Shown one piece after another: positions 29,719-55,615 of a DNA stretch of 64,000 nucleotides; position 1 is the stretch's first letter, and each line of letters opens with the position of its first letter. Below the pieces are notes generated by a model. It saw only the letters and a program-made list of their open reading frames with translations. It did no database searches and had not been told where the DNA came from. This stretch comes from Thermoplasmata archaeon (lineage in GTDB: Archaea > Thermoplasmatota > Thermoplasmata > UBA10834), in the NCBI GenBank assembly GCA_014859835.1, contig JACZKW010000047.1, positions 68,794 to 132,793 on the forward strand. The letters are read 5' to 3'. Made by a program: the position numbers and the translations under genes.

Positions 29719-29834
29719 CCTAACACCTGAACCAGTACGCCTGTTATCAATCTATTCCTGCAATGGTGTCTATGCCAGTATGCCGAAAGCATTATTACCG
29801 GGATGACTCTTCGAACAATCATTGTGAGTATTGT

Positions 29835-31404: not shown

Positions 31405-31461
31405 ACTAATCTCTGAATGAATGAAAAACTGGAATTCGGAGGGTTTCCCCTCCAGAGTTTC

Positions 31462-33995: not shown

Positions 33996-33996
33996 T

Positions 33997-34838: not shown

Positions 34839-37800
34839 TGCTTCACCTCCTGCTTCTTCGGTTCCTCAACAAGCGCAGCATCGATCATAGCGAGGATCTG
34901 CTCATCCCTGAAACCCTTCTGGGTGAGTGCGCCAGCGGGACATGCTCCCACACAGGCGCCGCAACCCTTGCACAGACCGACATTGACATCGACGATCTTC
35001 TTGTCCTTGATCTTCTTGTTATCGATGATCTCGAGCGCCTTGTACTCGCATGTGGGCACGCAGATGCCGCAACCGTCGCAATATTGCTCGTCGACGCTCG
35101 CGACTATCCCCTCGGCTTCCAGCGTGGTCTTGGATAAGATCGTCATGGCCCTGGCGACTGCGCCAAGTGCTTGGGCGATGCTCTCATCCACGAACTTCGG
35201 CGAATGAGCTATACCGGCGAGATAGACGCCTTCGGTGGCGAAGTCGATCGGCCTCAGCTTCATGTGCGCCTCCAGGAAGAAACCTTCCTTGGTTATAGGG
35301 ACCTTCAGCATGGGCGCGAGTTCCTCGGAGCCTTCCTCTGGCCTGGTCCCAGATGCGAGGACAAGGCAGTCTGGCCTCAGAACGACCTCCTTGCCGGTGT
35401 CCTCGTCTATCAATCTCACTTCGATCTTGCCGCCCTTGTCCTCTACGACGGGCTTCTTCTCATCGTCGAACCGTATGAAGGTCACGCCCTTCTGCGCGGC
35501 CTCCTTGTAGTACTTCTCTCTGAAGCCATAGGTCCTGATGTCCCTGTAGAGCACGTACACCTTCGCGTTCGGGTCCTTGTCCTTGATCTTATTGGCCGCG
35601 GTCATAGTGCCCGTGCAACAGACGCGGGAACAGTTCGGGAACTTGTCCTCCCTGGACCCGACGCACTGTATGAACACATAGGAATCGCCCTTGACCTCTC
35701 CCTTCTTCATCTTGCCCTTGAACTCGAGGAGCGTCATCACGTTGGCGTTCTTGCCATATAGGTACTCTCCCTCGGGCTTGTACTCCCGTCCGCCGACGGC
35801 GACTACGACGACTCCATGCTCCATCTCGGAGCCGTCCGTGAGCTGCGTCTTGAAGTTGCCGACATATCCGTCGATGGTCTTTACGGTCGTTCCAAGGTGT
35901 AGCGTGATGTTCTTGTTCGCCCTGATCTCCTGATCGACCTTCTTGAGGTACTCGTCAGGGTCGTCCCCGGACGGGAGATAATGAAGCTTCCTCAGGTTTC
36001 CTCCGAGTTCCTTCTCCCTCTCCACCAGGTGCACCTTGATGCCCTGCTTGGCGAGTTCTAGAGCGGATACCATGCCGCTCACTCCACCACCTATGACGAG
36101 AGCGTCCTGGTTCACGTTAATTATGAGGTTCTCGAGCGGTTCCAGCAACCTCGACTTCGCAAGAGCCATCCGCACAAGGGCCTTGGCCTTCTTCGTGGCG
36201 GCCTTAGGCTCGTGCATGTGTATCCAAGAGCACTGGTCCCTGATGTTCGCCATCTCGAAAAGGTACGCGTTGAGGCCAGCCTCCCTGATGGTGTTCTGGA
36301 ATAGTGGTTCATGCGTCCTCGGAGTGCAGCTCGCGACGACCACTCTGTTCAGGTCGTGCTCCTTGACCTTCTCCTTGATCTTCTCCTGAGCATCGGCGGA
36401 ACACGTGTACAAGTTCTGTTCGGCGTACACCACGTTGGGCAGGGTCTTCGCGTATTCCATGACCTCTGGCACATTGACGACGCCGCCGATGTTGATGCCA
36501 CAGTGGCAGATGAACACACCTACCCTGGGCTCCTTGCCGACCACATCGATCTCCTTCGGGTACACCTTTTTGGTGATCAAGGTGTTCCTTGAGGCCGTTA
36601 TCTCTGTGCCCGCCTTGGCCGCGGCACCGCTCGCTTCGGCCACGGTCATCGGGATATCCTTCGGTGACGAGAACGCGCCGCTGACGAATATGCCCGGTCT
36701 GGATGTCTCGACAGGTGAGAACGCGCCTGTCTGGCAGAACCCGTCGTCGTTCAGCCTGAACTTCATGACACGGCTCAGATTCTCCGCGTCCGCGGGCGGT
36801 GTCAGACCGACAGCCAGCACGACCAGGCCGAACTCCTCTTCCTTCGGTTCGCCGTTCTCGACGTACTTGATCATCAGATTCTTCGTCTTCGGGTTCTCGA
36901 CGACCGCCGCTGCCCTGGATCGGACGAATCTTATGCCGTATTCGTTCTTGGCGCGGTTGTAGTAATCATCGAACTCCTTTCCGAAGGCCCTCATGTCCAT
37001 GAAGAATATCGAGGGCTTGATGTTCCCTCCGTGTTCCTTGGCTATGATCGCCTCCTTGATCGAGTACATGCAACATACGCTGGAGCAGTACTCGTTCCCG
37101 CAGTGCTCGTCCCTGGAGCCGACGCACTGTATGAACGCGATCTTCTCGGGTATGTCACCGTCCGATGGCCTGAGCACGGTCCCGAAGTACGGGCCGGTCG
37201 CGCTCAGCATCCTCTCGAACTCTATGCTCGTGACGACGTTCGGGTACACGCCATAACCATACTCTGGCTTCAGGCGCGCGTTGAACTCGTCGAAGCCGGG
37301 AGATACGATGATCGACCCGACCTTGATCTCGAAGACCTTCTCCTTCTGATCGTAATCGACTGCCTTGGCCTTGCACTCCTCTGCGCAGATCCCGCAACCT
37401 ATGCACTTCTCGGGGTCTATCGAGTAGATCAGAGGTACGGCCTGCGGGTATGCGACATAGATCGCCTTCCTGATCTTCGTTCCCTCGTTGTACTCGTCCA
37501 CGGCCTCGATCGGACATTTCTGGGCGCAGCTTCCGCAGCCAGTACACTTCGTAGGATCGACCCTGAAAGCCCTCTGCCTCACCGTGACGGTGAAGTTGCC
37601 CGCCTGGCCATCCACGATGGCGATGTCCGCGTTCGTGATCAACTGTATGTTGTGGTGCCTGCCCGCGGCGACCAGCTTGGGCGCCATTATACACATGGCG
37701 CAGTCGTTCGTCGGGAAGGTCTTATCGAGCTGGGCCATGGTGCCGCCTATGCTCGCCTTCTTCTCAACCAGATATACTCTGTATCCGGAATCGGCAAGGT

Positions 37801-37876
37801 CCAATGCGGACTGGAGACCTGATATGCCTCCTCCTACAACCATGACCGCGCCGACCTTGTCAGTAGTAGCCATCAC
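34835..37876 (-). CDS. hdrA: Long (1013 aa) tandem-fused HdrA: N-terminally truncated HdrA-like FAD/ferredoxin unit fused to a complete HdrA
   Basis: Two Rossmann motifs (VMVVGGGISGLQSALDLA and ALVIGGGVSGMVSALELA). There is an internal HdrA N-domain Cys cluster (…VGVFICHCGINIGG…ASCTPRTHEP…DQCSWIH…), multiple 4Fe-4S motifs and a C-terminal 2x[4Fe-4S]. Confidence 0.85.
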   Translation of the reverse strand: MMATTDKVGAVMVVGGGISGLQSALDLADSGYRVYLVEKKASIGGTMAQLDKTFPTNDCAMCIMAPKLVAAGRHHNIQLITNADIAIVDGQAGNFTVTVRQRAFRVDPTKCTGCGSCAQKCPIEAVDEYNEGTKIRKAIYVAYPQAVPLIYSIDPEKCIGCGICAEECKAKAVDYDQKEKVFEIKVGSIIVSPGFDEFNARLKPEYGYGVYPNVVTSIEFERMLSATGPYFGTVLRPSDGDIPEKIAFIQCVGSRDEHCGNEYCSSVCCMYSIKEAIIAKEHGGNIKPSIFFMDMRAFGKEFDDYYNRAKNEYGIRFVRSRAAAVVENPKTKNLMIKYVENGEPKEEEFGLVVLAVGLTPPADAENLSRVMKFRLNDDGFCQTGAFSPVETSRPGIFVSGAFSSPKDIPMTVAEASGAAAKAGTEITASRNTLITKKVYPKEIDVVGKEPRVGVFICHCGINIGGVVNVPEVMEYAKTLPNVVYAEQNLYTCSADAQEKIKEKVKEHDLNRVVVASCTPRTHEPLFQNTIREAGLNAYLFEMANIRDQCSWIHMHEPKAATKKAKALVRMALAKSRLLEPLENLIINVNQDALVIGGGVSGMVSALELAKQGIKVHLVEREKELGGNLRKLHYLPSGDDPDEYLKKVDQEIRANKNITLHLGTTVKTIDGYVGNFKTQLTDGSEMEHGVVVVAVGGREYKPEGEYLYGKNANVMTLLEFKGKMKKGEVKGDSYVFIQCVGSREDKFPNCSRVCCTGTMTAANKIKDKDPNAKVYVLYRDIRTYGFREKYYKEAAQKGVTFIRFDDEKKPVVEDKGGKIEVRLIDEDTGKEVVLRPDCLVLASGTRPEEGSEELAPMLKVPITKEGFFLEAHMKLRPIDFATEGVYLAGIAHSPKFVDESIAQALGAVARAMTILSKTTLEAEGIVASVDEQYCDGCGICVPTCEYKALEIIDNKKIKDKKIVDVNVGLCKGCGACVGACPAGALTQKGFRDEQILAMIDAALVEEPKKQEVKQ

Positions 37877-38706
37877 TGCTCACCTCCGATCTCTATGGTC
37901 TTGTATGTGGGGGTGAATCCCTCCGGGTGTTCCATGGCGATCAGACTGTTTTGCCTGAGCAGGACTATGTGTCTGAGCACCTTGTCCGTAGGGACCTCCA
38001 TCATCTCCCCGAGCTCCTTAACGGACCTCGCTTTGGTCCTGGACAGCTCGAGTATGAGGCTCCTCTCGAACTCATCGGAGGTGGCCTCTGTGATTATCTT
38101 CTCTATCTCCTCCGGGTCCAGCTTGTTGTCGTAGACATTGCCCTTGCCGACAAGGTTCAGTTCCTTGCCCACAAGCGCCTTCAATCTGAATGTCTCGGAC
38201 GCCATGTCCGCGGCCGCGACCCTTGACATCAACCGTTCATCCTTCTTGACCTTGTTCGGTCCCAAGGCCTTCACGGTCTCCGTGAACTCCGTCACGACCT
38301 TCGAGAACTTCTCTCCTTCTGATGCGGACACCCATTCGAGCCTGAGTCTCTCGGGCGCTATGCCACATTCTTTGAGCAGCTTCTTCATGAGGTTCACGCG
38401 CTTCTCCGTGTAGTAGTTCCCGCTGATGTAATGGCAGTCTCCTATGTGGCAGCCGCCGAGCAGGATGCCATCGGCACCAGCCTTGAAGATGTCCAACACC
38501 AGATGCGGACTGATCCTCGTAGAGCACATCACCCTGACCGGGCGTATGTTGGTCGGGTACTGGTACCTGCTCACTCCACACAGGTCCGCTCCTGCATACG
38601 AGCACCAGTTGCAGAGGAACCCGATAATCTTCGGTTCCCACTCGCTGTCATGCTTCTTCTCTAGTGCGTGCGTCTCGTGATGAGTAGTGTGATGCTTTTC
38701 CGTCAT
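37873..38706 (-). CDS. MvhD-domain protein with about 130-aa C-terminal winged-helix-like extension
   Basis: The N-terminus (…KIIGFLCNWCSYAGADLCGVSRYQYP…GCHIGDCHYISGN…) is MvhD. The C-terminal extension is homologous to ORF 33997-34386. Confidence 0.75.
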   Translation of the reverse strand: MTEKHHTTHHETHALEKKHDSEWEPKIIGFLCNWCSYAGADLCGVSRYQYPTNIRPVRVMCSTRISPHLVLDIFKAGADGILLGGCHIGDCHYISGNYYTEKRVNLMKKLLKECGIAPERLRLEWVSASEGEKFSKVVTEFTETVKALGPNKVKKDERLMSRVAAADMASETFRLKALVGKELNLVGKGNVYDNKLDPEEIEKIITEATSDEFERSLILELSRTKARSVKELGEMMEVPTDKVLRHIVLLRQNSLIAMEHPEGFTPTYKTIEIGGEQ

Positions 38707-38709
38707 CTC

Positions 38710-40590
38710 TCACACCTCCTCATCGAGAGCAGCTCTGGCTTCAGCGAGCAGCTGAGCATCAGTGTAATTCGTCATCGTTATCGCACCCTCCGGGCAGGTG
38801 GCGCCGCATGCACCGCAACCCTTGCACGCTGCGGCTATGGCCTCAACCAGGCCTTTGTCGTTCTTTCTCAACGCGCCATACGGGCAGACAGCGATACAAG
38901 TACCACAGCCAGTGCACTTGGTCTCGTCCACGACTGATGTCAGCGCCTCGGCCTGCACATACCCTTTCGCCATCGGTATGGCTGCCCTGGATGCCGCCGC
39001 GGCACCCTGTATGGCGCATTCTGAGATGTCTGCCGGGCCCTTGCAGGTCCCGCAGACATATATGCCATCGGTCGCGAAGTCCACCGGCCTGAGCTTGACA
39101 TGCGCTTCCAGGAAGAACCCTTCCTGGCCCAGCGGGACCTTGAGCAGCTTCGACAGGTCTCCAGCATCGGGCTGAGCGACCAACGGGGTCGACAATATGA
39201 CCATGTCGACCGGCATGGTCCTCTCAAGCTTGAGCGTCTCATGGAAGTAAGTCACCTTCAACTGGTTGTCTTCCATGAACACCTTGGGGAGGTTCTCGGT
39301 CGTGTATCTCACGAACTTGACCCTCTTCTCCCTGGCCTTGTTGTAGTTGAGCTCATGCTCAACTCCGTATGCCATGACGTCCCTGTTGAACACGGTGACC
39401 TCGATCTTCTCGGACGGGCCTAGCTTCACCTCTTCGGCATCGCTCTCGCCCTCGGTTCCTCGGCTGCGTCTCCTGCGCCTGCGCTCGAGGATCTCGTCCG
39501 TCGCCTTCTTCTCGACCGGGATCTTGTCGACTACGGTGCCCTGCTTCTCGGCCAGTCCTAGCATGTTCTCGTAGTTGTCGACGATATTGATCGCGTTCTT
39601 GATCGCCACATTGCAGCAGATCCTGGAGCAGTAGCTGAGCTTCTGTCCCCTTGACCCGACACATTGTACGAACGCGACGCTCTTCAGTTTCGGGAGGGTC
39701 TTCTTCTTGCACAGTATCTCGAACTCAGTCAGGGTGACCACGTTCGGGAACTGGTTGTAGCCGTACAATCCCTCGGGGACGTACTCGAGCGCGCCCGTCG
39801 CCACTATGATCGTGCCGACCTTGATCTTCTTGTCCTCGGCGCCCTTGTGGCCAATCACGACCTCGTAGTTCCCTATGAATCCTTCAACGCTCTTCAGCAT
39901 CGAGTTGGTGTATACTGTTATGTTCTTGTGTTCGCTGACCTTCTTGATCAATGGGACGATCGTCTCCTCGGCTCCCTTGTCTGTGACATAAAGGTTGTTC
40001 AGGAGCTTGACGAACCCTCCGAGTTCGCCGTCCCTCTCGACGAGGTGCACGGGGAATCCCATGTCCGCCATGGACAGGGCAGCGGACATCCCGCTGACTC
40101 CGCCACCCACGACCAGGGCGACCGACTCCACATCGACCCTGACCTCTTCCTGGGGCACGAGCAACCTTGCCCGGGAAACGCCCATCCTTATGAGGTCCTT
40201 GGCCTTGACCGTCGCCTTGTCCTTCTCCTTCATGTGGACCCAGGAACAGTGTTCACGTATGTTCACGAATGTAAACAGGTACTTGTTCAATCCAGCGGAC
40301 TCGCAGGTCGCCTGGAACAGCGGCGCGTGCGTCCTCGGAGTGCAGCTCGCCACTATGACCCTGTTCAGGTTGTGCTTCCTGATGGCCTCCCTTATGCTGC
40401 TGAGGCCGTCCTCGGCACAGGTGTACAGGTTGTCATTCGCGTAGACCACATCGGGCAAGGTCTTCGCGTACTCCGCGACGGTCGGAACATCGACGAACCC
40501 GCCTATGTTCGAACCGCAGTGGCAGACGAACACGCCTATCCTCGGCTTATCACTCTGGATCGCTTCCTTGTTCTCGGCCATCTGAATCAT
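38710..40590 (-). CDS. hdrA: HdrA-like protein (complete-HdrA unit; second half of a split double HdrA)
   Basis: …IGVFVCHCGSNIGGFVD…ASCTPRTHAP…EHCSWVH…, FAD motif ALVVGGGVSGMSAALSMA, C-terminal CTGCGTCIAVCP…CKGCGACGATCP. Contains an Arg-rich/acidic insertion ERRRRRRSRGTEGESDAEE. Confidence 0.8.
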   Translation of the reverse strand: MIQMAENKEAIQSDKPRIGVFVCHCGSNIGGFVDVPTVAEYAKTLPDVVYANDNLYTCAEDGLSSIREAIRKHNLNRVIVASCTPRTHAPLFQATCESAGLNKYLFTFVNIREHCSWVHMKEKDKATVKAKDLIRMGVSRARLLVPQEEVRVDVESVALVVGGGVSGMSAALSMADMGFPVHLVERDGELGGFVKLLNNLYVTDKGAEETIVPLIKKVSEHKNITVYTNSMLKSVEGFIGNYEVVIGHKGAEDKKIKVGTIIVATGALEYVPEGLYGYNQFPNVVTLTEFEILCKKKTLPKLKSVAFVQCVGSRGQKLSYCSRICCNVAIKNAINIVDNYENMLGLAEKQGTVVDKIPVEKKATDEILERRRRRRSRGTEGESDAEEVKLGPSEKIEVTVFNRDVMAYGVEHELNYNKAREKRVKFVRYTTENLPKVFMEDNQLKVTYFHETLKLERTMPVDMVILSTPLVAQPDAGDLSKLLKVPLGQEGFFLEAHVKLRPVDFATDGIYVCGTCKGPADISECAIQGAAAASRAAIPMAKGYVQAEALTSVVDETKCTGCGTCIAVCPYGALRKNDKGLVEAIAAACKGCGACGATCPEGAITMTNYTDAQLLAEARAALDEEV

Positions 40591-41885
40591 CCCCCTCCTG
40601 CCTGCATGAGCGCTTCGACCGCCTTCGCCGCCGCGCTCGAGCCCTGAGCGACCGACTCGGGTATGTCCGCCGGGCCGGCGCAGTATCCTGCCAGGTATAT
40701 CCCAGAGACCACGGTTCTGCCGGGTCCGAGGATCCTGTCAGAGGATTCCAGGAACCCGAATTCGTCCTGCTTCAGGCCCAGTATCTTGGCGAGCTCGGCG
40801 GTCTCCTTCTTCGGCACGAGGGTGGTCGCGAGGACGACTAGGTCGAACTCCTCGGACTGCTGCCTCCCACCGACATCGTACACCACCAATGGGTTATGGG
40901 TGTCAGGGTTCTCCTGGACCGTGGCGTCCGAGTTGATGTATCTGACGCTGTAGTCCCTCTTCGCCCGCTCGACGTATTCGTAGAATCCCTTCGAGCAGGC
41001 CCTCATATCCTTGTAGAATATCGTGGATTCGATATCGTCATAATGCTCCTTGGCGAGCATGGCCTCCTTGGTGGAGTGCATGCAACACACGGAGCAGCAG
41101 TAGGGATGCCCTACCTGCGGGTTGCGTGAGCCGACGCACTGTATGAATCCGATCTTCTTCGGCCTCTCTCCGTCAGACCGCCTCTGTATATGTCCATGTG
41201 TCGGGCCGGCCGCGTTGATCATCCTCTCATATTCCATCGCGGTGAACACGTTGGGGTATCGGCCATACCCGTACTCGGAGGACGGTGTCGGGTCCCAGAC
41301 ATCGAAACCGGTCGCGACTATTATCGAACCGACCTCGAACTCGAGTATCTGGTCCTTCATCTCATAGTTGATGGCCTCTCTCTTGCAGGCCTTCATGCAG
41401 TTACCGCACTTGCCCTTGGTCAGCATGAGACAGTTGTCCTTGTCGATGGTCATCACTCTGGGCACGGCCTGCATGAAGGGGACGTATATCGCCTTCCTCT
41501 TCGTCAGTCCCATCTCCCAGTCGCTCACGACCTTGCTCGGGCACTTCTCGAGGCATTCTCCACAGCCAGTACACTTGGACTCGTCCACGAACCTGGCCTT
41601 CTTGAGCACCTTCACCTTGAAGTCGCCCACGCTTCCTTCCACCCCGATCACTTCAGCGTAAGTTATCACGTTGGTGTTCGGGTGGCTGAAGCAGTCAGCC
41701 ATCTTCGGTGCAAGGATGCAGATCGAGCAGTCGTTCGTCGGGAATGTTTTGTCCAGTTGTGCCATTCTTCCGCCTATGCTGGGCGTCTTCTCAACCAGAT
41801 GGACAATTATTCCCTTGTCCGCGAGGTCCAGAGCCGCCTGTATTCCAGCGACTCCTCCTCCAATCACCATAACAGCCTTTTCCAT
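40587..41885 (-). CDS. hdrA: HdrA-like protein (FAD/ferredoxin unit lacking the HdrA N-domain; first half of a split double HdrA)
   Basis: VMVIGGGVAGIQAALDLA…MAQLDKTFPTNDCSIC… plus 4Fe-4S motifs. Collinear with the N-terminal halves of the 1013- and 1008-aa proteins. Confidence 0.8.
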   Translation of the reverse strand: MEKAVMVIGGGVAGIQAALDLADKGIIVHLVEKTPSIGGRMAQLDKTFPTNDCSICILAPKMADCFSHPNTNVITYAEVIGVEGSVGDFKVKVLKKARFVDESKCTGCGECLEKCPSKVVSDWEMGLTKRKAIYVPFMQAVPRVMTIDKDNCLMLTKGKCGNCMKACKREAINYEMKDQILEFEVGSIIVATGFDVWDPTPSSEYGYGRYPNVFTAMEYERMINAAGPTHGHIQRRSDGERPKKIGFIQCVGSRNPQVGHPYCCSVCCMHSTKEAMLAKEHYDDIESTIFYKDMRACSKGFYEYVERAKRDYSVRYINSDATVQENPDTHNPLVVYDVGGRQQSEEFDLVVLATTLVPKKETAELAKILGLKQDEFGFLESSDRILGPGRTVVSGIYLAGYCAGPADIPESVAQGSSAAAKAVEALMQAGGG

Positions 41886-42096
41886 TCAAAGACCTCCGAG
41901 AGTTTTCTAATACAAATTTCCGTCAACGGGTTCCACCCATCTTCGGCGATTCTTATGCTCCTGAACCTGATTTCGGTATCCGGGCTTTCATCCGTACTCC
42001 CTTCTCAATCTTATCTGTTTCGTTGAATGCGCGACGATTGTAGGCCATACTACTCTTGCATTCGTCCCTTTTTCGTCCCGCACTCGCCGATGTGCG

Positions 42097-42519
42097 CTAC
42101 TTCGCAATCACCTTCTTGACGTCAGCGCCCTTCTCGATCTCGGTCACCTTGACCTTGAATGGGACTTTCTTCTTCGCCTGTGCGTCGGCTCTGGCGAACC
42201 TCTGGCAGTTCGGATACGTGCACGGGGAGCACTTCTCATCCTTGCACGAGAGTTCCACGAGCAGCATCCTCTCTCTGGTGTCCTCCGGCTTCGTAACGGG
42301 CTTCCGGATCTCGAACATCTTGGACATCTTCGTCTCATATGGCTTCTTCTTGGGTTCGTACCTGGCGAACCTCTGACAGTTCGGGTACGTACACGGAGAA
42401 CACTTGGTGTCCTTGCAGGACAGTTCTATCAGCACGAACCTGTCGCCTACGTTCTTCGGCGAGTTCTCTCCCTTGCCCCCCTTCGTATCTGCCTTCTTGG
42501 TCGTGGTTTTTGGAATCAT
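42097..42519 (-). CDS. Small Lys-rich protein with duplicated C-x4-C-x2-C-x4-C motif (putative metal-binding), unknown function
   Basis: Two about 60-aa repeats, each containing L(I/V)ELSCKD(T/E)KCSPCTYPNCQRFAR. The repeats are also recognisable at DNA level with mostly synonymous differences. Confidence 0.5.
   Translation of the reverse strand: MIPKTTTKKADTKGGKGENSPKNVGDRFVLIELSCKDTKCSPCTYPNCQRFARYEPKKKPYETKMSKMFEIRKPVTKPEDTRERMLLVELSCKDEKCSPCTYPNCQRFARADAQAKKKVPFKVKVTEIEKGADVKKVIAK
42191..42425. repeat. Intragenic direct repeat (two about 65-nt copies, 42191-42255 and 42361-42425) encoding the duplicated Cys motif
   Basis: ctggcgaacctctgRcagttcggRtacgtRcacggRgaRcactt…ccttgcaSgaSagttc occurs twice, 170 nt apart. 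Confidence 0.6.
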
Positions 42520-42545
42520 CTTAACATCCCTTGAGATTAAAACCG

Positions 42546-44141
42546 CTACTCGAGCGAGTCAGCGATCGCGACAGTCAGGTCCTTTATCTTTATATCTATC
42601 TGCTCCTTGGGTACCAGGGTCTTGTTCTCCTGGGCGCACTTCAGATGGATGAGGCACTTGTAGCAGCCGGTCACGAGGCACTCGGCCCCCGTCTTCTTCG
42701 CCTCCTTCAGCCTCTCTACCTGCAACCTACGCGAAGTCTCGTCGCAGGTGGCCCACGCGCTCACACCACAGCATAATGCTTTGTCGCGGGTGTTCTCCAT
42801 CTCGACAATCTCGGTACCCTCCGAGGCTTTCAGGGCGTTCCTGGGCTGGTCGTAGATGTCCATGTGCCTTCCGAGCCTACACGAATCCTGGAAGGTCAGC
42901 TTCTGGGCGTTCTTCTTCAGTTTGAGCTTGCCTTCCTTGATCAGGTCGTCTATCAGCTGCGAGATGTGCACCATCTCGAAGTCCGCATCCCCCATCAGCT
43001 CTTGATAGTCGAGGTCGAAGGTGCGCAGGCATTCCGGGCACGAGAAAACGACCTTCTTGGCCCCAGAGGCCTTTATGACCTCGAGGTTCTTCTTCATCAG
43101 CTTCTGCATGGCCGCCTCGTCCCCGGTCCAGTTGAGGTCGTGCCCGCAGCAGACCTCATCGTTACTGACGACCGGGATAATACCCCCCTTATTCATTATC
43201 TTTACTGCAGCCTGGGGTATGCCAGAGAGGTCCAATTCCCGGTCCTTGAATATCGAGTCGAAGTATACCGCGCACCCCGTGAAGAAGAACACGTCACCCT
43301 TCTCGGCGATCTTGATATCATCCGTGACCCATCCCAGCCGGTTCTGCTTGAAGTCTCCGTGGGCCATGACCCGCATGACCCCTTGCATCAATCCGCCCTG
43401 GGAGCATACAGGCACGTTATCCAGCGAGCTCGCCTCGGTCCTCAAGCCCCTGATGAATCCCGAATAATCGACCTTGTACGGGCACATCGAATTGCATTGC
43501 TCACAGGTGACGCAGGTCCAGATGTCCTTGTCCGTCGAGAGCGTCTGCATCTGCCCCTCCGTAGCCTTAAGGACTATGGTCCTGGGCGCGAACTCCGTAT
43601 TGTACTTGGCGACCGGGCATACGGTCGTACACTTGCCGCACTCTACACAGTCGAACGCGCCCGTATCCTCGATCAGAGCATCTATCCTCTGCTTCAGGGT
43701 GATCGGGTCCTTGGTTGCCTTAGGGGCCTTCGGCATCGGGTTCGGCCCGAGCTTCCTGATCTGTTCTGTGAACTCCTTCATGGTCGCAGCGAACTTCTGC
43801 CCCTCTGATGCGGATATCCATTCCAATCGCATCCTGTCCTTGCCGATCCCGAGCCTGTCGAGGAGTTCCTTGACCGATTCCATGCGCTTCTCGGCCTCGA
43901 CGTTCCCGGAGATGTAATGACAATCGCCGATGTGGCATCCCGCAATCAGGATACCATCCGCGCCCAGTTCCAGTGCCCTGAGTATGAAGTATGGTTCAAC
44001 CCTCCCTGAGCACATGACCCTGATGATCCTGGCGTTGGGGGGATACTGCATCCTGCTCACGCCTGCCAGGTCCGCTCCTGCGTACGAGCACCAGTTGCAG
44101 CAGAAGGCCACTATGTTCGGCTCGAACTCCTTGCTGCTCAA
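42546..44141 (-). CDS. MvhD-HdrC-HdrB three-domain fusion (MvhD + HdrD-like)
   Basis: The N-terminus (…NIVAFCCNWCSYAGADLAGVSRMQYP…GCHIGDCHYISGN…) is MvhD. Two 4Fe-4S motifs follow (CVECGKCTTVCP and CVTCEQCNSMCP), then two CCG domains (…FFFTGCAVYF…CCGHDLNW…SCPEC… and …FQDSCRLGRH…LCCGVSAW…GCYKC…). Confidence 0.8.
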   Translation of the reverse strand: MSSKEFEPNIVAFCCNWCSYAGADLAGVSRMQYPPNARIIRVMCSGRVEPYFILRALELGADGILIAGCHIGDCHYISGNVEAEKRMESVKELLDRLGIGKDRMRLEWISASEGQKFAATMKEFTEQIRKLGPNPMPKAPKATKDPITLKQRIDALIEDTGAFDCVECGKCTTVCPVAKYNTEFAPRTIVLKATEGQMQTLSTDKDIWTCVTCEQCNSMCPYKVDYSGFIRGLRTEASSLDNVPVCSQGGLMQGVMRVMAHGDFKQNRLGWVTDDIKIAEKGDVFFFTGCAVYFDSIFKDRELDLSGIPQAAVKIMNKGGIIPVVSNDEVCCGHDLNWTGDEAAMQKLMKKNLEVIKASGAKKVVFSCPECLRTFDLDYQELMGDADFEMVHISQLIDDLIKEGKLKLKKNAQKLTFQDSCRLGRHMDIYDQPRNALKASEGTEIVEMENTRDKALCCGVSAWATCDETSRRLQVERLKEAKKTGAECLVTGCYKCLIHLKCAQENKTLVPKEQIDIKIKDLTVAIADSLE

Positions 44142-47100
44142 ACCTTCACCTCCTCGTCCTTGTCAGTCAAGAGGGCCTCGAGCATGGTCATTATCTGTTC
44201 GGACTTGAAGTGCTTGGGACTGATCGCCCGCGCACAGCATGCGACCGCGCAGGAGCCACAGCCCTTGCAGAGCGCCTCGTTAATCCTGGATTTGATCACT
44301 CCTGGGGATATCTCCTCGAGTCTCGGGGCGCCGTACTCGCACACATCCTCGCATCTGCCGCAGGCTATGCACCTCTCCTCGTTGACGACGCTCACGACCC
44401 CTTCGGCCTCTATGAACGGTTTGGACAGGACGGTGTTCACCCTTGCAGCTGCGGCCAGCGCCTGCGATATGCTCTCGTCGATCAATCTCGGTGAATGCGC
44501 GAGCCCGCAGAGGAAGATCCCGTCCGTCGCGAAATCGACCGGTCTCAGCTTCATGTGTGCCTCCAGGAAGAACCCCTCCTTGGTCAGCGGCACCTTCAGC
44601 AGCTGGGCAAGGTCCTTGTTGTCCGGGTTCGGCCGGACCGCGGCGTTTAGAACGAGATAGTCCGTTTTGATCGTCACGGTCTGCTCTATGAACTGTTCGT
44701 CGATCTCCACGACGATGTCCCCATTCGTCGCAACGACTCTGGGTGGAGATTCGGGATCGTATCGGAGGAAGATGACGCCAAGCCTGGCCGCTTCGTTGTA
44801 ATTCTCCTCTGCGAAACCGTAGGTCCTGATGTCTCTGTAGAGCACGAAGACATTCGTCTCGGGGTGCTCCTTCTTGATCTTCATCGCGTTCGCCATGGCG
44901 GTCGAACAGCATATCCTGGAGCAGTTCGGATACTCGTCGTTCCTCGAACCGACGCACTGGATTATCACGACATTGTCCGCCTTGAAATCTTTCTCGGCAA
45001 GCAGCTCTCCCAGATCCGTCTGCCTGATGACCTTCGGGTTCTTCCCGAACATGTACTCCACCGGCTCGTACTCCACACCACCGGTGGCCACGACGATGGC
45101 GCCGTGCTTGAACTTCTCTCCGCTCTTGAGAGTGGTCTCGAAATTGCCGATATATCCCTTTATCTCCGAGGCGGTCTCGTTGAGGTAGGTCTTGATGTTC
45201 TTGTGTTCTGCTATTTCCTTCTCGAGCTGTTCGAAAGTCTTCTGGGGGTCGACTCCCGAGAGTGTATGATGTATCCGTCTCAGATGCCCACCCAGCTGCT
45301 TCTCCTTTTCCACCAGGTGCACCTCGAAGCCGGAATTCGCTATCTCTAGGGTCGCGGTCATGCCGCTCAGACCTCCGCCGATGACCAGCGCTGACGGTGT
45401 GACGGGTATCTTGGGTTGAGGTAGAGGCTCAAGCATCGCCGCTTTCGCTACCGCCATGCGCACAAGGTCCTTCGCTTTCGCGGTCGCTTTCACCGGTTCC
45501 AACCGGTGCACCCAAGAGCACTGGTCCCTGATGTTGGCCATCTCGAAAAGGTACTTGTTCAGCCCCGCCTCCTTGACCGTGTTCTGGAACAGCGGCTCGT
45601 GAGTCCTCGGCGTACAGCTCGCGACGACCACCCTGTTCAGGTCGTGTTTCTCGACGACCTCCTTGATCTTCTTCTGAGTGTCCTGTGAGCATGTGTAAAG
45701 GTTACGTTCGACGTAGACCACGCCAGGCAAGGTCGCTGCATATTCGACTACCTCCGGCACGTTCACCACAGAACCGATGTTTATGCCGCAATGGCAGACG
45801 AACACGCCTATCCTGGGTTCCTTGCCGGAGACATCCCTCTCCTGTGGATACTCCTTCTTGGTGACCAGCTTGCCCCGCTCATCCGACAGTAACGCTGCCA
45901 CCTTCCCCGCAGCGCCGCTGGCTTGAGCGATCGAGTCTGGAATGTCCTTCGGGCCAGAGAACGCGCCGCACACGAATATCCCGGGGACGGATGTCGACAC
46001 AGGGGTCAGATCGTCAGTCTCGCAGAACCCGAACTTGTTCAGGTTGAGTCCGAATATCTTTGCCATATTGCCAGTGGATTCCGGGGGCCTCGCGCCCGCA
46101 GAGAGCACGACCAGGTCGAACACCTCCTCTCGAATGTCCGGACCCTCGAGATAGCTGAGCATGAGGTTGTTCGTCTCCGGGTCCTCCTGGACCTTTGATA
46201 TACGGTTGTTCCTCAGGACCCTCACGCCGTATTCGTTCTCCGCTCTCATCAGGTATTCCTCGAACTCCTTGCCGAAAGCCCGAGTGTCCATGAAGAATAT
46301 CGCAGTGTCCAGCCCCTGGACATGCTCCTTGCCTATGACCGCCTGCTTCAGGGCGGCCATGCAACAGTATGATGAACAATAGGTATTGGATGTCTGCGCG
46401 TCCCTCGAGCCGACACACTGTATGAACGCGATCTTCTTGGGCACATCCCCATCCGAAGGCCGGATCACGTGTCCCTCCGTCGGACCAGACGCGCTGAGCA
46501 TCCTCTCGAACTCTATGTTCGAGAGCACATTATGGAATACGCCGTGCCCGTACTCGATCTTCTTCGACGAATCGTAGACGTCGTATCCGGGGCTCAGGAT
46601 GATGGCGCCCACCTCGATCATCTCTTCCTTGTCCAGCTCATCGGAGTAATTGATCGCCTTCGCCTCGCAGAATCTGTCACAGACCCCGCATCCGATGCAC
46701 AGTCCCTTGTCTATAGTGTATACTAAGGGCACAGCCTGCGGGAACGGGACATAGATCGCCTTTGCCGGTGCCAAGTCCCTATCAAAGGCGTTGGCCCCTT
46801 CGATCGGGCAGTGTTCGGCGCACACTCCGCAGCCAGTGCACTTCTCTTCGATTATGAACCTGGACCTACGCGATAGCTTGACCTTGAAATCACCCGTTTT
46901 GCCCTCGATGCCCTTGAGCTCCGCGTTGGTGATCATCGTGATGTTCTCATGCCTCCCTGTCGCGACCAGCTTCGGGGAGATGATGCACATCGAGCAATCG
47001 TTCGTGGGGAAGGTCTTGTCCAACTGTGCCATCGTGCCGCCTATGCTGAGCCCGGATTCGAGTATGTACACCTTGAACCCGGAATCGGCCAGATCCAGCG

Positions 47101-47164
47101 CCGCCTGCATCCCTGCGGGACCGCCTCCGACCACGAGCACGGCCCCAACTTTTCTATCTGCCAT
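44138..47164 (-). CDS. hdrA: Long (1008 aa) tandem-fused HdrA, paralog of 34835-37876
   Basis: VLVVGGGPAGMQAALDLA at the N-terminus. An internal HdrA N-domain (…IGVFVCHCGINIGSVVN…ASCTPRTHEP…DQCSWVH…) and a second FAD motif ALVIGGGLSGMTATLEIA. Collinear with the other long HdrA. Confidence 0.85.
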   Translation of the reverse strand: MADRKVGAVLVVGGGPAGMQAALDLADSGFKVYILESGLSIGGTMAQLDKTFPTNDCSMCIISPKLVATGRHENITMITNAELKGIEGKTGDFKVKLSRRSRFIIEEKCTGCGVCAEHCPIEGANAFDRDLAPAKAIYVPFPQAVPLVYTIDKGLCIGCGVCDRFCEAKAINYSDELDKEEMIEVGAIILSPGYDVYDSSKKIEYGHGVFHNVLSNIEFERMLSASGPTEGHVIRPSDGDVPKKIAFIQCVGSRDAQTSNTYCSSYCCMAALKQAVIGKEHVQGLDTAIFFMDTRAFGKEFEEYLMRAENEYGVRVLRNNRISKVQEDPETNNLMLSYLEGPDIREEVFDLVVLSAGARPPESTGNMAKIFGLNLNKFGFCETDDLTPVSTSVPGIFVCGAFSGPKDIPDSIAQASGAAGKVAALLSDERGKLVTKKEYPQERDVSGKEPRIGVFVCHCGINIGSVVNVPEVVEYAATLPGVVYVERNLYTCSQDTQKKIKEVVEKHDLNRVVVASCTPRTHEPLFQNTVKEAGLNKYLFEMANIRDQCSWVHRLEPVKATAKAKDLVRMAVAKAAMLEPLPQPKIPVTPSALVIGGGLSGMTATLEIANSGFEVHLVEKEKQLGGHLRRIHHTLSGVDPQKTFEQLEKEIAEHKNIKTYLNETASEIKGYIGNFETTLKSGEKFKHGAIVVATGGVEYEPVEYMFGKNPKVIRQTDLGELLAEKDFKADNVVIIQCVGSRNDEYPNCSRICCSTAMANAMKIKKEHPETNVFVLYRDIRTYGFAEENYNEAARLGVIFLRYDPESPPRVVATNGDIVVEIDEQFIEQTVTIKTDYLVLNAAVRPNPDNKDLAQLLKVPLTKEGFFLEAHMKLRPVDFATDGIFLCGLAHSPRLIDESISQALAAAARVNTVLSKPFIEAEGVVSVVNEERCIACGRCEDVCEYGAPRLEEISPGVIKSRINEALCKGCGSCAVACCARAISPKHFKSEQIMTMLEALLTDKDEEVKV

Positions 47165-47165
47165 G

Positions 47166-47615
47166 TCAAACGTCCTCCTCGCACAACGGTCCGAGCCTCT
47201 CCAGCTCTGCCACCATCTTCTTTACGACGTCTGCGAACTTCTGTCCCTCTGAGCCAGCGATCCATTCTATTCGGAATCTCTGGTCCTCTATGCCCGCGTC
47301 TTCGAGGAATTCTGACAGGAAGTCTCCTCTCATCGCCGCCTTCTCGTTGCCGTTTATGTAATGGCAATCCGCTGGATGGCATCCTGCGACGATCACACCG
47401 TCCGCACCCAGCTCGAATGCCTTCAGCACGAAGGCCGGATCGACTCTTCCCGAGCACATGACTCTGATTATCCTGACATTTGACGGATACTGCAATCTGC
47501 TCACGCCCGCCAGGTCAGCTCCTGCATACGAGCACCAGTTGCAGCAGAATGCGATGATCTTGGGCTCGTGAGTCTTCTCTGTGCTCTGAGCATCCTTGGT
47601 GACTGGTCCGCTCAT
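47166..47615 (-). CDS. mvhD: MvhD; track ORF extends upstream to 47951 across the hdrB 3' end, but an ATG at 47615 with a GGGGGG SD follows the hdrB stop
   Basis: …KIIAFCCNWCSYAGADLAGVSRLQYP…RVMCSGRVDP…GCHPADCHYINGN…. Confidence 0.8.
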   Translation of the reverse strand: MSGPVTKDAQSTEKTHEPKIIAFCCNWCSYAGADLAGVSRLQYPSNVRIIRVMCSGRVDPAFVLKAFELGADGVIVAGCHPADCHYINGNEKAAMRGDFLSEFLEDAGIEDQRFRIEWIAGSEGQKFADVVKKMVAELERLGPLCEEDV

Positions 47616-47617
47616 GT

Positions 47618-48535
47618 TCACGCCCCCCTGAGCTTCCTCAGCAGTGAATGGGCGGACACGTGATGCGTATCGAAGCCCAGCGAGATCGGGTCTATGCCCA
47701 TCGAGAGTGCCTGGAGCTGTGATACATGCATGACCGGGATGCCATCCTTCGTGAAGGTCTTCTGCGCGTTGTCGAACTGAAGGAGGCAGAACGGGCATCC
47801 AGTGACGATGCAGTCTGCGCCGACTGCCGAAATGTTCTTGCACTTGTCCTCCGTGAGCGAGTTGGCGAGATCGACGACGTGGGATCTCACACCACCTCCC
47901 GCGCCGCAGCAATCCAACTTGTCCTCGTAATCCACGGATGTCGCGCCGCACGCCTCGACGATCTGGTCGAGGAGCACGGGGTTGTTCGGATCATCTATCG
48001 TTTGATTCTCCGTCGGTCGCAGGTAATGACATCCATAATGCACGGCCACGGTGATGTTATTCAGGGGTTTCTTGACCTTGCTGGCTATGGCCTCCAGACC
48101 TATGTCTCTGGCCATCACATCGATATAGTGGCGTACCTTGACTGGTTCGAAAATCTTCCTCCTTCCCTCGGTCTTCCTGGGCACGCCAGTATATTTCTTA
48201 CCTATCTGGGCGAGCACACGGTTCACCCTGCCCATGGCCTTCGGATCCTGGAGGTACTCCGTGGCTTTGAGGAGGGAGGTGAGGCAGCCGTTGCATACGG
48301 TCATGATGTCCCTTCGCTCCTCCTGGGCAAGTACGAGGTTCCTCGCGGCCAGCAGAAGCCATGTGTTCTTGTCGGTGGAGTAGAATATCCCTGGGACCGG
48401 GCAGCAAGAGAACTCTGGCATGTCCATCACGTCGAGGTCGAAGCCCTCTTTTCCACAGACCCACCTCACTGCATATTCGATGCCAGGATATCTGTTCGGT
48501 ATGACGCAACCGAAGAAGTACGCGTAAGGGGTCAT
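47618..48535 (-). CDS. hdrB: Heterodisulfide reductase subunit B
   Basis: Two CCG domains (…FFGCVIP…FSCCPVPG… and …HYGCHYL…LDCCGAGGG…GCPFC…). Confidence 0.9.
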   Translation of the reverse strand: MTPYAYFFGCVIPNRYPGIEYAVRWVCGKEGFDLDVMDMPEFSCCPVPGIFYSTDKNTWLLLAARNLVLAQEERRDIMTVCNGCLTSLLKATEYLQDPKAMGRVNRVLAQIGKKYTGVPRKTEGRRKIFEPVKVRHYIDVMARDIGLEAIASKVKKPLNNITVAVHYGCHYLRPTENQTIDDPNNPVLLDQIVEACGATSVDYEDKLDCCGAGGGVRSHVVDLANSLTEDKCKNISAVGADCIVTGCPFCLLQFDNAQKTFTKDGIPVMHVSQLQALSMGIDPISLGFDTHHVSAHSLLRKLRGA

Positions 48536-49116
48536 GCCTTGACCTCCTCTTCGATGCCTATGAGTTTGTCGTACTTCGACGCGTGTATCAGGACATTGAT
48601 CTCCCGCAATACCTTCTTGTAACTCGGATCGTTCGAATGCACCTGCTCCAGGCCAAGCTCGCTTCGGATCTTGTTGATCTCCTCGTCCGGTTTGACGCTC
48701 TGGCCATACCTCACGAGGTTCGTTGCGGCTACCTTGATGAACGGAGGTATGACTCCTTCCCTGACTGCTATGTGTCTAAGTGCGATCATCACCTCGGCCG
48801 GATTGATGTCGGCCGGGCAATGCTCGTAGCATCTGTAACAGGTCGCGCATACCCATCGGGTGCTGAGGGTGTAGCTCTTGAGTCCGAACTGGCAGTACTT
48901 GATGATGCTCCTTGTCTTGTAATCTATCTTCAGGCTTATCGGGCATACACCAGTGCAGTTTCCGCATTGGAGGCAGGTCATGACGTCCTTTCCGCCGTAC
49001 TTCTTGATTTCCTTCGCGAAATTTCGATCCAGCTGGCTCTCGTCGATGACCTTCTCCTCGACGAGTTTCTCCTTGAGTCCACTAATGAAGGTCTTCTCGA
49101 CTTCTCCGATGATCAC
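48532..49116 (-). CDS. hdrC: Heterodisulfide reductase subunit C
   Basis: CLQCGNCTGVCP and CATCYRCYEHCP (2x[4Fe-4S]). Confidence 0.9.
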   Translation of the reverse strand: MIIGEVEKTFISGLKEKLVEEKVIDESQLDRNFAKEIKKYGGKDVMTCLQCGNCTGVCPISLKIDYKTRSIIKYCQFGLKSYTLSTRWVCATCYRCYEHCPADINPAEVMIALRHIAVREGVIPPFIKVAATNLVRYGQSVKPDEEINKIRSELGLEQVHSNDPSYKKVLREINVLIHASKYDKLIGIEEEVKA

Positions 49117-51206
49117 ACCTCCGTCTCAGCGTTCTTCTTCTGAGGTGGTTTATGCGTCCCACATATTGGCGTCCATGCCGCCATGATCTCCGAATTTATC
49201 TGATCGTCAGTGAACTGCTTTGCGGTTATGGCCTTCTGTGGACACGATGCAGCACAAGTACCGCATCCATGGCATAGGGCCTCTATGATGCGCACTTTCG
49301 TGCCTCCCTTCTCGGATTCGTAGAGCTCGGGAGCACCATATGGGCAAAGTTCTGCGCAAAGGCCACAGCCGACGCATAGGTCTTCGTCGATCGATACCGT
49401 GAGCGGTTCTATCCTCACCTTTCCAGTCAGCATGAGCACTGCAGCGGACGAGGCCGCTGCCTTGGCCTGGGCGACGGAGTCCGGGATATCCTTAGGAGCC
49501 TGCGCGCAACCCGCGACAAAGATCCCGTCGGCAGCCGTGTCGACTGGTCTCAGCTTCGGATGCGCTTCCATGAAGAACCCGTCGGGGCTCGTCGTGATGC
49601 TCAGTATCTTCCCTATGCGCTTGCTCCCCTCGGATGGCACCAGGCCTGTCGACAGAACCACAAGATCGAATTCCCTCTCGGTGATCTTGTTGAGCAGCGT
49701 CTCCTCAGCCCTGATCGTGATGACCTTTGTCTCAGGGTCCTCGCTCAGCTTGGCTGGCCTGCCCCTGAAGAATTCGACTCCGTACTCTTCTCTGACACGG
49801 TGATAGAGTTCTTCGAACCCTTTCCCGAAAGCTCGTATGTCATTGTAATACACCGCGATTTCGGTGTCCGGCTCATGTTCCTTGATTATCTGCGCATTCT
49901 TTATCGCGTACATGCAGCAGACGCGTGAGCAATAGTTGTTGCCGATCTTCTTGTTTCTGGAACCGACACATTGGATGAATGCCACGCGTTTCGGTGTGAC
50001 TTTGTCCGAAGGCCTTATCAGATGCCCGCCGGTCGGACCCGAAGCGTTCAACAGCCTCTCGAGTTCGAGGGCCGATATCACGTTCTCATATTCCCAGTAC
50101 TTGTAGACGCCCTTCCTCATGGGCACATAGGTCTCGGATCCAGTCGCGATGATTATCGTCCCGACCTTGAAATCGAGCACCTCGTCCTCCATCTTATGGT
50201 CGATCGCGTTGTTCGTGCACGCCTTGACGCAGAGCTGGCACTTCCCGCTCTTGAAATGCAGACAGTTCTCCTTGTCTACAGTGTATTTCAGCGGGACGGC
50301 CTGCGGGAACGGGACGTATATCGCCTTCCTCTTCCCAAAGCCCATGTCGAACTCGTTATCCACCTTGACTGGACAGACATCGGCACATACACCGCATCCT
50401 ACGCACTTGTCCTCGTGGACGAACCGCGCCTTCCGCCTTACCTTCACATCATAATTGCCGATGTACCCCTTGACTTCCTCGACCTCTGAGTATGACAGCA
50501 GCTCGATGTTTGGGTTACGCGATAGCTCGACCATCTTCGGCGCGAGTATGCATATCGCACAGTCCCCTGTCGGGAATGTCTTGTCAAGCTGTGCCATCAC
50601 TCCGCCGATGCTCGGTTTGCTCTCGACCAAGTACACTTTGAATCCCATGTTGGCGAGGTCGAGTGATGACTGTATCCCGGTGACCCCTCCTCCGACCACG
50701 AGCGCAGCTCTTTCGACTGGGACCTCCCTTGCCTCCAACGGTTCCAGCCTGGCCACCTTGGAGACCCCCATCCTCACGAGGTCGATCGCCTTCTGAGTCG
50801 CGTTATCCTTCTCATGTGAATGGACCCACGAGCACTGCTCGCGGATGTTGACCATGTGTAATACGTACGGATTCAGCCCCGCCCTCTGTATGCATGTCCT
50901 GAATGTCGGTTCATGCAGTCTCGGAGAACACGAAGCTATGACCACTCTGTTGACATTCCATTCCTTGATCGCCTTCAGGATCTCTTCCTGACCAACGTCG
51001 GAGCAAGTGTATTTATTGTCCCGAGCGACCACAACGCCCGGCAGCTCTTCAGCTGCATCTCTCACTTTGACGCAATCGACCACGCCCGCGATATTGCTAC
51101 CGCAGTGGCATACGAAAACTCCTATACGTGGTTCGGTCGCGTCGCTTGTCCCTTGTGACGGCGTTCTTTCAACAGAGTCCTTTTCCAGAGGTTCGGGCGA
51201 GCCCAT
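49113..51206 (-). CDS. hdrA: Heterodisulfide reductase subunit A (canonical length, 697 aa)
   Basis: N-domain Cys cluster (…IGVFVCHCGSNIAGVVD…ASCSPRLHEP…EQCSWVH…), FAD motif ALVVGGGVTGIQSSLDLA, inserted and C-terminal ferredoxin motifs. A GGAGGGGGGA SD lies directly upstream. Confidence 0.9.
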   Translation of the reverse strand: MGSPEPLEKDSVERTPSQGTSDATEPRIGVFVCHCGSNIAGVVDCVKVRDAAEELPGVVVARDNKYTCSDVGQEEILKAIKEWNVNRVVIASCSPRLHEPTFRTCIQRAGLNPYVLHMVNIREQCSWVHSHEKDNATQKAIDLVRMGVSKVARLEPLEAREVPVERAALVVGGGVTGIQSSLDLANMGFKVYLVESKPSIGGVMAQLDKTFPTGDCAICILAPKMVELSRNPNIELLSYSEVEEVKGYIGNYDVKVRRKARFVHEDKCVGCGVCADVCPVKVDNEFDMGFGKRKAIYVPFPQAVPLKYTVDKENCLHFKSGKCQLCVKACTNNAIDHKMEDEVLDFKVGTIIIATGSETYVPMRKGVYKYWEYENVISALELERLLNASGPTGGHLIRPSDKVTPKRVAFIQCVGSRNKKIGNNYCSRVCCMYAIKNAQIIKEHEPDTEIAVYYNDIRAFGKGFEELYHRVREEYGVEFFRGRPAKLSEDPETKVITIRAEETLLNKITEREFDLVVLSTGLVPSEGSKRIGKILSITTSPDGFFMEAHPKLRPVDTAADGIFVAGCAQAPKDIPDSVAQAKAAASSAAVLMLTGKVRIEPLTVSIDEDLCVGCGLCAELCPYGAPELYESEKGGTKVRIIEALCHGCGTCAASCPQKAITAKQFTDDQINSEIMAAWTPICGTHKPPQKKNAETEV

Positions 51207-53131: not shown

Positions 53132-53134
53132 GGT

Positions 53135-53362: not shown

Positions 53363-53397
53363 CTGGCGGTCAGTATGCGGGGTCCGTTGATAAAGTT

Positions 53398-55605: not shown

Positions 55606-55615
55606 CAGTTATCCT

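Follow-up and report, generated by a model that had tools for sequence, protein, structure and literature searches.

The X gene and its duplicated Cys4 motif

The 64,000-nucleotide stretch of a Thermoplasmata archaeon genome analysed here (contig JACZKW010000047.1, positions 68,794 to 132,793; called the window, with positions counted from its first letter) carries on its minus strand a gene, named X in this work, which encodes a small Lys-rich protein with two copies of a four-cysteine (Cys4) motif. X occupies positions 42097..42519 and starts with an ATG codon. Its product has 140 amino acids, a mass of 16.0 kDa, an isoelectric point (pI) of 9.6 and a net charge of +16; 26 of the 140 residues are Lys, and the C-terminus, ...GADVKKVIAK, is Cys-free. 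The gene is located inside a redox supercluster (30886..56266, minus strand, as mapped by Pfam scans and open reading frames (ORFs)), and the genes that neighbour it all encode flavin or iron-sulfur (Fe-S) redox proteins according to Pfam, in agreement with the original prediction, made from the letters of the window, which placed X in an hdr array.

The protein consists of two repeats of about 57 residues, each with one C-x4-C-x2-C-x4-C motif (residues 35-48 and 92-105), and the offset between them is exactly 57 amino acids, or 171 nt. In the DNA they form a direct repeat, 42172-42289 and 42343-42460, which is 71% identical and has the same 171-nt spacing. The core of repeat 1 (residues 27-53, RFVLIELSCKDTKCSPCTYPNCQRFAR) is encoded at 42361..42441 on the minus strand, with its Cys4 motif at 42376-42417, and the core of repeat 2 (residues 84-110, RMLLVELSCKDEKCSPCTYPNCQRFAR) at 42190..42270 on the same strand, with its Cys4 motif at 42205-42246. 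Over a 24-codon core (residues 30-53 versus 87-110) 22 of the 24 residues are identical; 10 codons differ by synonymous changes only and two by non-synonymous ones (I/V and T/E). The proportion of synonymous differences between the repeats, calculated by the Nei-Gojobori method, is 0.64-0.73 and saturated, while that of non-synonymous differences is only 0.07-0.11, so the duplication is ancient and the peptide is constrained. Recent slippage was considered as the origin of the repeats and is rejected by the saturated synonymous divergence; the earlier claim of a duplicated Cys4 block maintained by selection on the peptide is upheld by this codon comparison.

The tails that follow the repeats co-vary within lineages; for example, the two repeats of one homologue (locus L048) share FNVK, and those of P0123 and of L044 share TTxxFE[LMV]. 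A phylogeny of the repeats is too short to decide between one duplication and several. Some single-repeat entries, P0124 (81 aa) and L050 (L050:3-245), look like a join of the repeat 1 N-terminus and the repeat 2 tail, and they result either from recombination (deletion) between the repeats or from collapse of the repeat during assembly.

A search of protein databases finds 189 homologues of X at E<=1e-3, with a best E of 1e-84, and the identity to X is 62-97% among the 120 homologues listed and 43-97% across more than 189 homologues. All the named entries are described as 'hypothetical protein' and their named sources are nearly all Thermoplasmatota/Thermoplasmata metagenome-assembled genomes (MAGs). 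When 1.84 billion cluster representatives were scanned exhaustively with HMMER, just 22 representatives of the family at 50% identity were returned, which makes the family a narrow one, and these include two-repeat (125-157 aa) as well as one-repeat (48-102 aa) forms. In an alignment of 28 diverse homologues the eight Cys of X are invariant, as are E32, L33, P42/P99, T44, Y45/Y102, P46/P103, Q106 and R107; within repeat 1 the invariant positions are E32, L33, C35, C40, P42, C43, T44, Y45, P46 and C48. The ratio of non-synonymous to synonymous substitution rates (dN/dS), calculated pairwise with the gene of the window as reference, is 0.10-0.47 for 27 of 38 orthologues, and for the other 11 it is not computable, the synonymous sites being saturated. 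X is a genuine protein-coding gene under purifying selection, and a spurious ORF is rejected by the homologues and the low dN/dS. The original prediction of a small, Lys-rich, real protein, which lack of homologues together with poor coding statistics had been expected to overturn, thus stands on an intact ORF with good coding statistics and numerous homologues.

Pfam and NCBIfam contain no family that X matches at the curated cut-off, and a literature search on the C-x4-C-x2-C-x4-C spacing string retrieved no papers. The compact Cys4 motif ELSC-x4-C-x-PCTYPNCQR[FY] is undescribed so far, and the family is unannotated, restricted to Thermoplasmatota and lineage-specific.

Gene order around X and in related genomes

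The position of X was compared among 67 loci, which come from a scan that covered each GTDB species by one genome and whose neighbouring genes were identified by BLAST of the locus ORFs against the Hdr proteins of the window. In 45 loci the gene immediately before X encodes an MvhD-HdrC/B protein, either fused or split (138 + 387 aa); among the 46 whose sequence extends upstream, L048 alone departs from this. HdrA-N is encoded directly downstream in all 45 loci with a complete downstream ORF. In L018 the upstream gene was called as 'HdrA2', which is a merged HdrA2+HdrC/B reading frame and not a missing gene. The order is kept where the Hdr proteins share merely 50-60% identity with those of the window, it is the same in the P0038 and P0013 loci (database gene calls), where the gaps between hdrCB and X are 19-21 nt, and in L053-L055 one-repeat forms of X fill the same slot. 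The nearest relative of the window is JAHIRF01, 'Thermoplasmatota archaeon MM_PC_MetaG.mb.116', in which X is 94% and the Hdr proteins are 97-99% identical. The co-localisation of homologues with hdr/mvh genes, proposed as a check on the first description of the gene, is therefore found on both sides of X, and its co-localisation and co-orientation across divergent genomes, with gaps of 19-26 nt, are those expected of an Hdr/Mvh subunit. The favoured reading of X, to which we give a probability of about 50%, is a lineage-specific accessory subunit with two small Fe-S modules in tandem, which would transfer electrons or act as an adaptor in the Mvh-type hydrogenase/Hdr-type flavin-based electron-bifurcating machinery of non-methanogenic (or environmental Methanomassiliicoccales-like) Thermoplasmata.

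At least 12 of these MAGs also encode a second family, of about 49-60 aa, which has the pattern MPxxVxKWNxxYEQIETSC-x5-C-xPCTYPNCQRxVRLKK..FGK and is absent from the window. This paralogue of about 50 aa is found in loci L056-L073 (for example L068:9998-10156, L065:9998-10255 and L061:9995-10156), always just downstream of pyrD-pyrK and convergent with a homocitrate/isopropylmalate-synthase-like gene, and near genes for cysteine desulfurase, IscU (NifU_N) and cysK. Only six database entries match it, since such ORFs are rarely called as genes. The one locus of the 67 outside Thermoplasmatota-type MAGs, L057 (DATEYD010000314.1, 3.5 kb), is binned as 'Candidatus Paceibacterota', and the region around its mini paralogue is almost identical to that of L059, a contig from Thermoplasmatota, which makes mis-binning the probable explanation. 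The company of cysteine desulfurase, IscU/NifU_N and pyrD-pyrK, conserved around the paralogue, would suit a protein that carries or helps to assemble Fe-S clusters for the dozens of cluster sites of Hdr and Mvh proteins. We consider this role of X highly improbable: the Pfam and NCBIfam scans give no similarity to Nfu, A-type or Grx proteins, X never adjoins isc or suf genes in the loci scanned, and the neighbourhood of the paralogue may be mere inherited synteny among related genomes.

The gene directly upstream of X in the window encodes an MvhD-HdrC-HdrB fusion of 531 aa (42546..44141, minus strand; identified by Pfam and motifs), which contains FlpD, two CxxCxxCxxxC ferredoxin-type motifs and two complete CCG domains, and whose stop codon is 26 nt from the start of X. 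DsrC is a protein-borne substrate of an Hdr-like enzyme, and X, which follows an intact HdrC/B-type module whose two CCG domains are complete, might be a comparable dithiol/disulfide (or persulfide) substrate or carrier, reduced at the CCG/noncubane site of that module. DsrC and the LbpA protein of sHdr are, like X, small proteins encoded with an HdrB/D-like CCG module in organisms that have no CoM-S-S-CoB rationale. Unlike X with its two compact Cys4 loops, DsrC has two Cys on a C-terminal arm and LbpA has lipoate, and neither is similar to X in sequence; membership of the DsrC family is rejected by the lack of Cys in the C-terminal arm of X and of any DsrC match. Such a substrate would be the physiological counterpart of the 'unknown heterodisulphide' by which the Hdr substrate of these Thermoplasmata is named (bioRxiv 10.1101/2020.03.09.984617), and LbpA of sHdr provides a protein-borne precedent (PMC11094781). 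This explanation is nevertheless unlikely, because the Cys of X are central in a conserved domain and not on a flexible terminal arm, a loop of 14 residues that holds four invariant Cys and conserved Pro, Tyr and Pro is typical of a metal site, and the paralogue of about 50 aa has no Hdr neighbour. It also fits poorly with L048, a locus in a Methanomassiliicoccaceae-labelled MAG, in which X stays beside HdrA-N with no HdrC/B gene before it.

The L048 locus has an AT-rich spacer of 260 nt with a TATA-like sequence (L048:4457-4715), with HdrA-N after X. This arrangement suggests that X may be able to head the downstream hdrA-N unit, and X is linked with the HdrBC-less module downstream no less tightly than with HdrC/B, since HdrA-N alone is kept there.

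In the window X is separated from hdrA-N by a spacer of 211 nt (41886..42096, minus strand). An alignment of 22 such spacers reveals a conserved block, AATCGTCGC...CAACGAAACAGATAAG, at 42010-42039, which is shared by close relatives and not by distant ones, and a GGAGG is present at 41891-41897, before the start of hdrA-N. The block may be an internal archaeal promoter of the transcription factor B recognition element (BRE)/TATA-like kind, from which the hdrA-N/hdrA-C/mvhD/hdrA/mvhD unit would be expressed, and the spacer may thus comprise a promoter and a 5' leader. X is not followed by an oligo-T terminator, the Rfam scan shows no RNA family near X, and a scan for bacterial promoters and terminators gives nothing that exceeds the shuffled expectation.

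The conserved block directly downstream of X and the very basic composition of the protein could also indicate a redox- or Fe-S-sensing regulator, whose Lys-rich tails bind DNA or RNA, possibly this spacer, and which controls the downstream hdrA module. WhiB-like (Wbl) proteins share with X a small size, a basic tail and a set of four Cys, which in their case includes C-x2-C-x5-C. They are partners of transcription factors in actinobacteria and have no sequence match to X, which is located inside an enzyme operon. This possibility is very unlikely: a gap as short as that between hdrCB and X is usual for stoichiometric subunits, the cluster already has an ArsR-type regulator, the Pfam and NCBIfam scans of X find no helix-turn-helix (HTH) or known nucleic-acid-binding domain, and the spacer block is conserved among close relatives only.

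The supercluster that surrounds X is transcribed from the minus strand and begins with hypB, hypF, hypA and hypD (51676-56266), which are followed by hdrA (697 aa), hdrC (194 aa), hdrB (305 aa), mvhD and a double hdrA (1008 aa). After the fusion gene and X come hdrA-N (40587..41885, minus strand), which encodes 432 aa and by Pfam is the N-terminal half of a split double HdrA with an FAD/NAD fold and Fer4, and hdrA-C (38710-40590, minus strand, Pfam), which encodes the second HdrA half of 626 aa. These are followed on the same strand by genes identified by Pfam as mvhD (277 aa), a double hdrA (1013 aa), mvhD (151 aa) and an ArsR-type HTH protein (129 aa), and then by the small (337 aa, 32982-33995) and large (507 aa, 31462-32985) subunits of a [NiFe]-hydrogenase and a hydrogenase maturation protease (30886-31404), all on the minus strand, while hypE (29763-30881) is on the plus strand. 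Uncultured archaea commonly encode such 'double HdrA' proteins of about 1000 aa (PMC11237513), and the window has three such units of about 1010 aa, of which two are fused (34835-37876 and 44138-47164) and one is split into 432 + 626 aa (38710-41885). Together with one canonical HdrA (697 aa), four MvhD domains, but only two HdrB/C sets and one [NiFe]-hydrogenase, they make a stoichiometry which is unusual and suggests a supercomplex.

Some further features of the window were observed. The MvhD homologue of 277 aa (37873-38706, minus strand) has a C-terminal extension of about 130 aa (37876-38259), which is absent from the MvhD copies of 150 aa; by eye it resembles a winged-helix segment, and it has no Pfam match at E<=0.01. 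An ORF of 543 aa (31417-33048, plus strand), antisense to the gene of the [NiFe]-hydrogenase large subunit (31462-32985, minus strand), is a shadow ORF and not a gene, and similar long antisense ORFs run across the hdrA genes. A tRNA of 106 nt (26229-26334, plus strand; 40.8 bits in Rfam) presumably contains an intron; ARAGORN in its default bacterial mode finds no tRNA in the window.

Resemblance of the Cys4 repeats to known domains

Among the models that X approaches below threshold, PF04060 ('Putative Fe-S cluster') is the best Pfam match and the most consistent one, since it is found at E<=0.1 in 26 of the 28 alignment members scanned individually against Pfam, with a best E of 7.9e-7; in addition, a precomputed PF04060 match is attached to a few of the homologues in the database. 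The best matches in NCBIfam, which are weak, are to the N-terminus of RnfB/RsxB. Repeat 2 gives the best of these sub-threshold matches, at residues 97-118 to PF04060 and at residues 95-116 to RnfB. PF04060 (in PROSITE the '4Fe-4S domain') covers FdI of RnfB as well as the domain at the N-terminus of the large subunit (AcsC/CfsA) of the corrinoid iron-sulfur protein (CFeSP), and the reference domains of this type were taken from PDB entries of RnfB (8ahx_B, 7zc6_B and 9eri_B) and CFeSP (4djd_C, 2h9a_A and 9fzy_F). X and PF04060 have in common the C-x2-C-x4-C spacing and a third Cys that is preceded by an aromatic-Pro-x and leads into a helix (CSPCTYPNCQRFA in X, CGQCG[FY]PGCxxxA in PF04060). 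Both repeats of X contain CSPCTYPNC, which aligns to CGQCGFPGC and is followed by QRFAR..., hhalign pairs KDEKCSPCTYPNCQRFARAD with the RnfB/CFeSP sequence PGSQCGQCGFPGCGAAAVAI (P 7.2e-4), and the AlphaFold2 model of a single repeat has an order of helix, Cys loop and helix that may add to the likeness. RnfB FdI is a small, mobile cluster domain on solvent-exposed flexible linkers, with the motif CxxCx(n)Cx17C (PMC9588780), and the repeats of X are proposed to be small domains on flexible linkers as well.

Several results weigh against an Fe-S subunit of this kind. The match to PF04060 reaches 17.8 bits, below the cut-off of 23, and zinc-finger-type models are only slightly weaker across the alignment (IBR 24/28 and Zn_Tnp_IS91 21/28). 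The pairing by hhalign covers only 20 columns, with a probability of 26%, and profile searches of the PDB with full-length and single-repeat profiles retrieve no RnfB or CFeSP. The resemblance is therefore only at the level of the motif (C-x2-C-x-[FY]-P-x-C, then a helix), and homology to PF04060 is not established from these comparisons. The fourth Cys of PF04060, about 16-17 residues downstream of the triad, is absent in both repeats of X. The structure models give little help: full-length X has a predicted local distance difference test (pLDDT) score of 38 and no usable fold in AlphaFold2, a single repeat modelled with a 43-sequence alignment has a pLDDT of 67, a moderate confidence, with one helix (4-17) that runs up to the first Cys, the Cys loop (18-28) and a second helix (29-40), and Foldseek finds 0 neighbours of this model in the PDB. 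The domain is also not exclusively bound to Hdr, since the paralogue of about 50 aa is encoded outside hdr clusters. An extra two-repeat copy (L047:9986-10519) in the 'Methanomassiliicoccales' MAG CSMAG_404 is free of hdr genes over 10 kb around it; the genes beside it (arginine decarboxylase, SNase-like nuclease, RibD_C and SUKH) are unrelated and offer no functional lead, and the same MAG also holds a normal, hdr-linked copy of X (L044). Finally, four Cys within 14 residues could equally form a Zn(Cys)4 knuckle.

That last point underlies the alternative of a structural zinc protein, in which the two C-x4-C pairs of each repeat form a Zn(Cys)4 knuckle and the Lys-rich arms glue or nucleate the Hdr/Mvh supercomplex, with no electrons carried. 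It accords with the compactness of the 14-residue motif, with the weak matches to IBR, Zn_Tnp_IS91 and, more weakly, eL37e, and with a very basic and largely unstructured prediction, which recalls small ribosomal or polymerase Zn proteins, and a structural subunit fits the fixed operon position equally well. However, each repeat has one CxxC and not the usual pair of zinc ribbons and rubredoxins, the best and most consistent profile match is to an Fe-S domain, the aromatic-Pro-x-Cys followed by a helix is that of RnfB/CFeSP, and the surrounding genes encode Fe-S redox proteins, so that we regard a purely structural zinc protein as doubtful.

Membership of the zinc-ribbon or rubredoxin-like Cys4 proteins is rejected in any case, because they need two CxxC where a repeat of X has one, the other spacings of X being x4, and no zinc-ribbon model is above threshold. 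The ribosomal protein eL37e is likewise rejected, with 11.4 bits against a cut-off of 71, a spacing that differs from C-x2-C-x14-C-x2-C and the hdr context of X. Neither the ribosomal nor the zinc-ribbon match that had been named in advance as contrary evidence is thus found. The one match from the PDB profile searches, to an alcohol oxidase (E 0.63), is a chance match of 'TYPNCQ'. The sub-threshold Pfam and NCBIfam matches and the lack of relevant PDB profile matches bear out the initial statement, in which no named family was recognised in the motif.

The comparison with redox proteins that have other Cys spacings gives a similar result. Plant-type [2Fe-2S] ferredoxins have the spacing C-x4-C-x2-C and those of the adrenodoxin type C-x5-C-x2-C. 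In X the plant-type spacing applies to Cys one to three, so the type of cluster is not deducible from the spacing of the Cys alone; the paralogue of about 50 aa has C-x5-C-x2-C. X differs from these ferredoxins in that it has no Fer2 match, is too small for a beta-grasp and has its fourth Cys after 4 and not 29-36 residues, and the likeness is one of spacing only. A bacterial-type 2x[4Fe-4S] ferredoxin is rejected because CxxCxxCxxxCP and a Fer4 match are absent, and the HdrB/HdrD CCG domain (PF02754, CXnCCGXmCXXC) because X has no CCG, the CCG domains being in its upstream neighbour. MvhD ([2Fe-2S]), HdrC (2x[4Fe-4S]) and polyferredoxins are encoded, as X is, in hdr/mvh operons, and they are the actual or presumed electron wires between the hydrogenase, the flavin of HdrA and HdrB. 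Unlike these proteins, X matches no FlpD or Fer4 model, lacks the CxxCxxCxxxCP motif, is far smaller per cluster site and strongly basic, and is found in Thermoplasmatota only.

X also differs from RnfB and CFeSP in other ways. Its fourth Cys, which is invariant, precedes the triad by 4 residues (by 5 in the mini paralogue), and the protein stands alone, as a tandem with Lys-rich tails that lacks a membrane anchor, extra ferredoxin modules and a corrinoid domain. One unlikely possibility is that the repeats carry an unusual Cys4 cluster, with four ligands within 14 residues, in a new Fe-S binding fold. By analogy, X would be closest in role to small accessory Fe-S modules such as RnfB FdI, MvhD and HdrC, but it is not demonstrably a member of any of their families.

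Candidate role in the Hdr/Mvh machinery

We infer the metal identity, the complex membership and the electron transfer of X from the features described above. As a mini Fe-S subunit, X would fold each repeat of about 57 aa around its four invariant Cys into a small metal centre. This would most probably be an Fe-S cluster, for instance a [4Fe-4S] similar to that of RnfB FdI, with the fourth ligand provided by the preceding segment, or possibly a [2Fe-2S]. Flexible Lys-rich linkers would join and flank the mini-domains and dock on the Hdr proteins, which are mildly acidic (the partner proteins have a pI of 5.5-6.6, versus 9.6 for X). The two cluster modules might then act as tethered electron relays or adaptors, and the relay would link the upstream-encoded MvhD-HdrC/B module to the downstream-encoded, HdrBC-less double-HdrA/MvhD module. 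Alternatively, the modules of X may bridge two equivalent protomers, and two equivalent docking sites would fit with the repeat tails that co-vary within lineages.

Multiple HdrA, MvhD and HdrBC genes are present in many uncultured anaerobic archaea, in which their partners and substrates are not known. X is a concrete candidate for the missing component, which may be a wire, an adaptor or a substrate, because it is strictly conserved and wedged between the HdrC/B and the HdrBC-less double-HdrA modules. The small size of the protein, 16 kDa with about 6 kDa per repeat, would allow it to be readily expressed and tested. While not paradigm-changing, X offers a cheap and direct way to approach by experiment the Hdr supercomplexes of archaea that are not methanogens, which are poorly understood.

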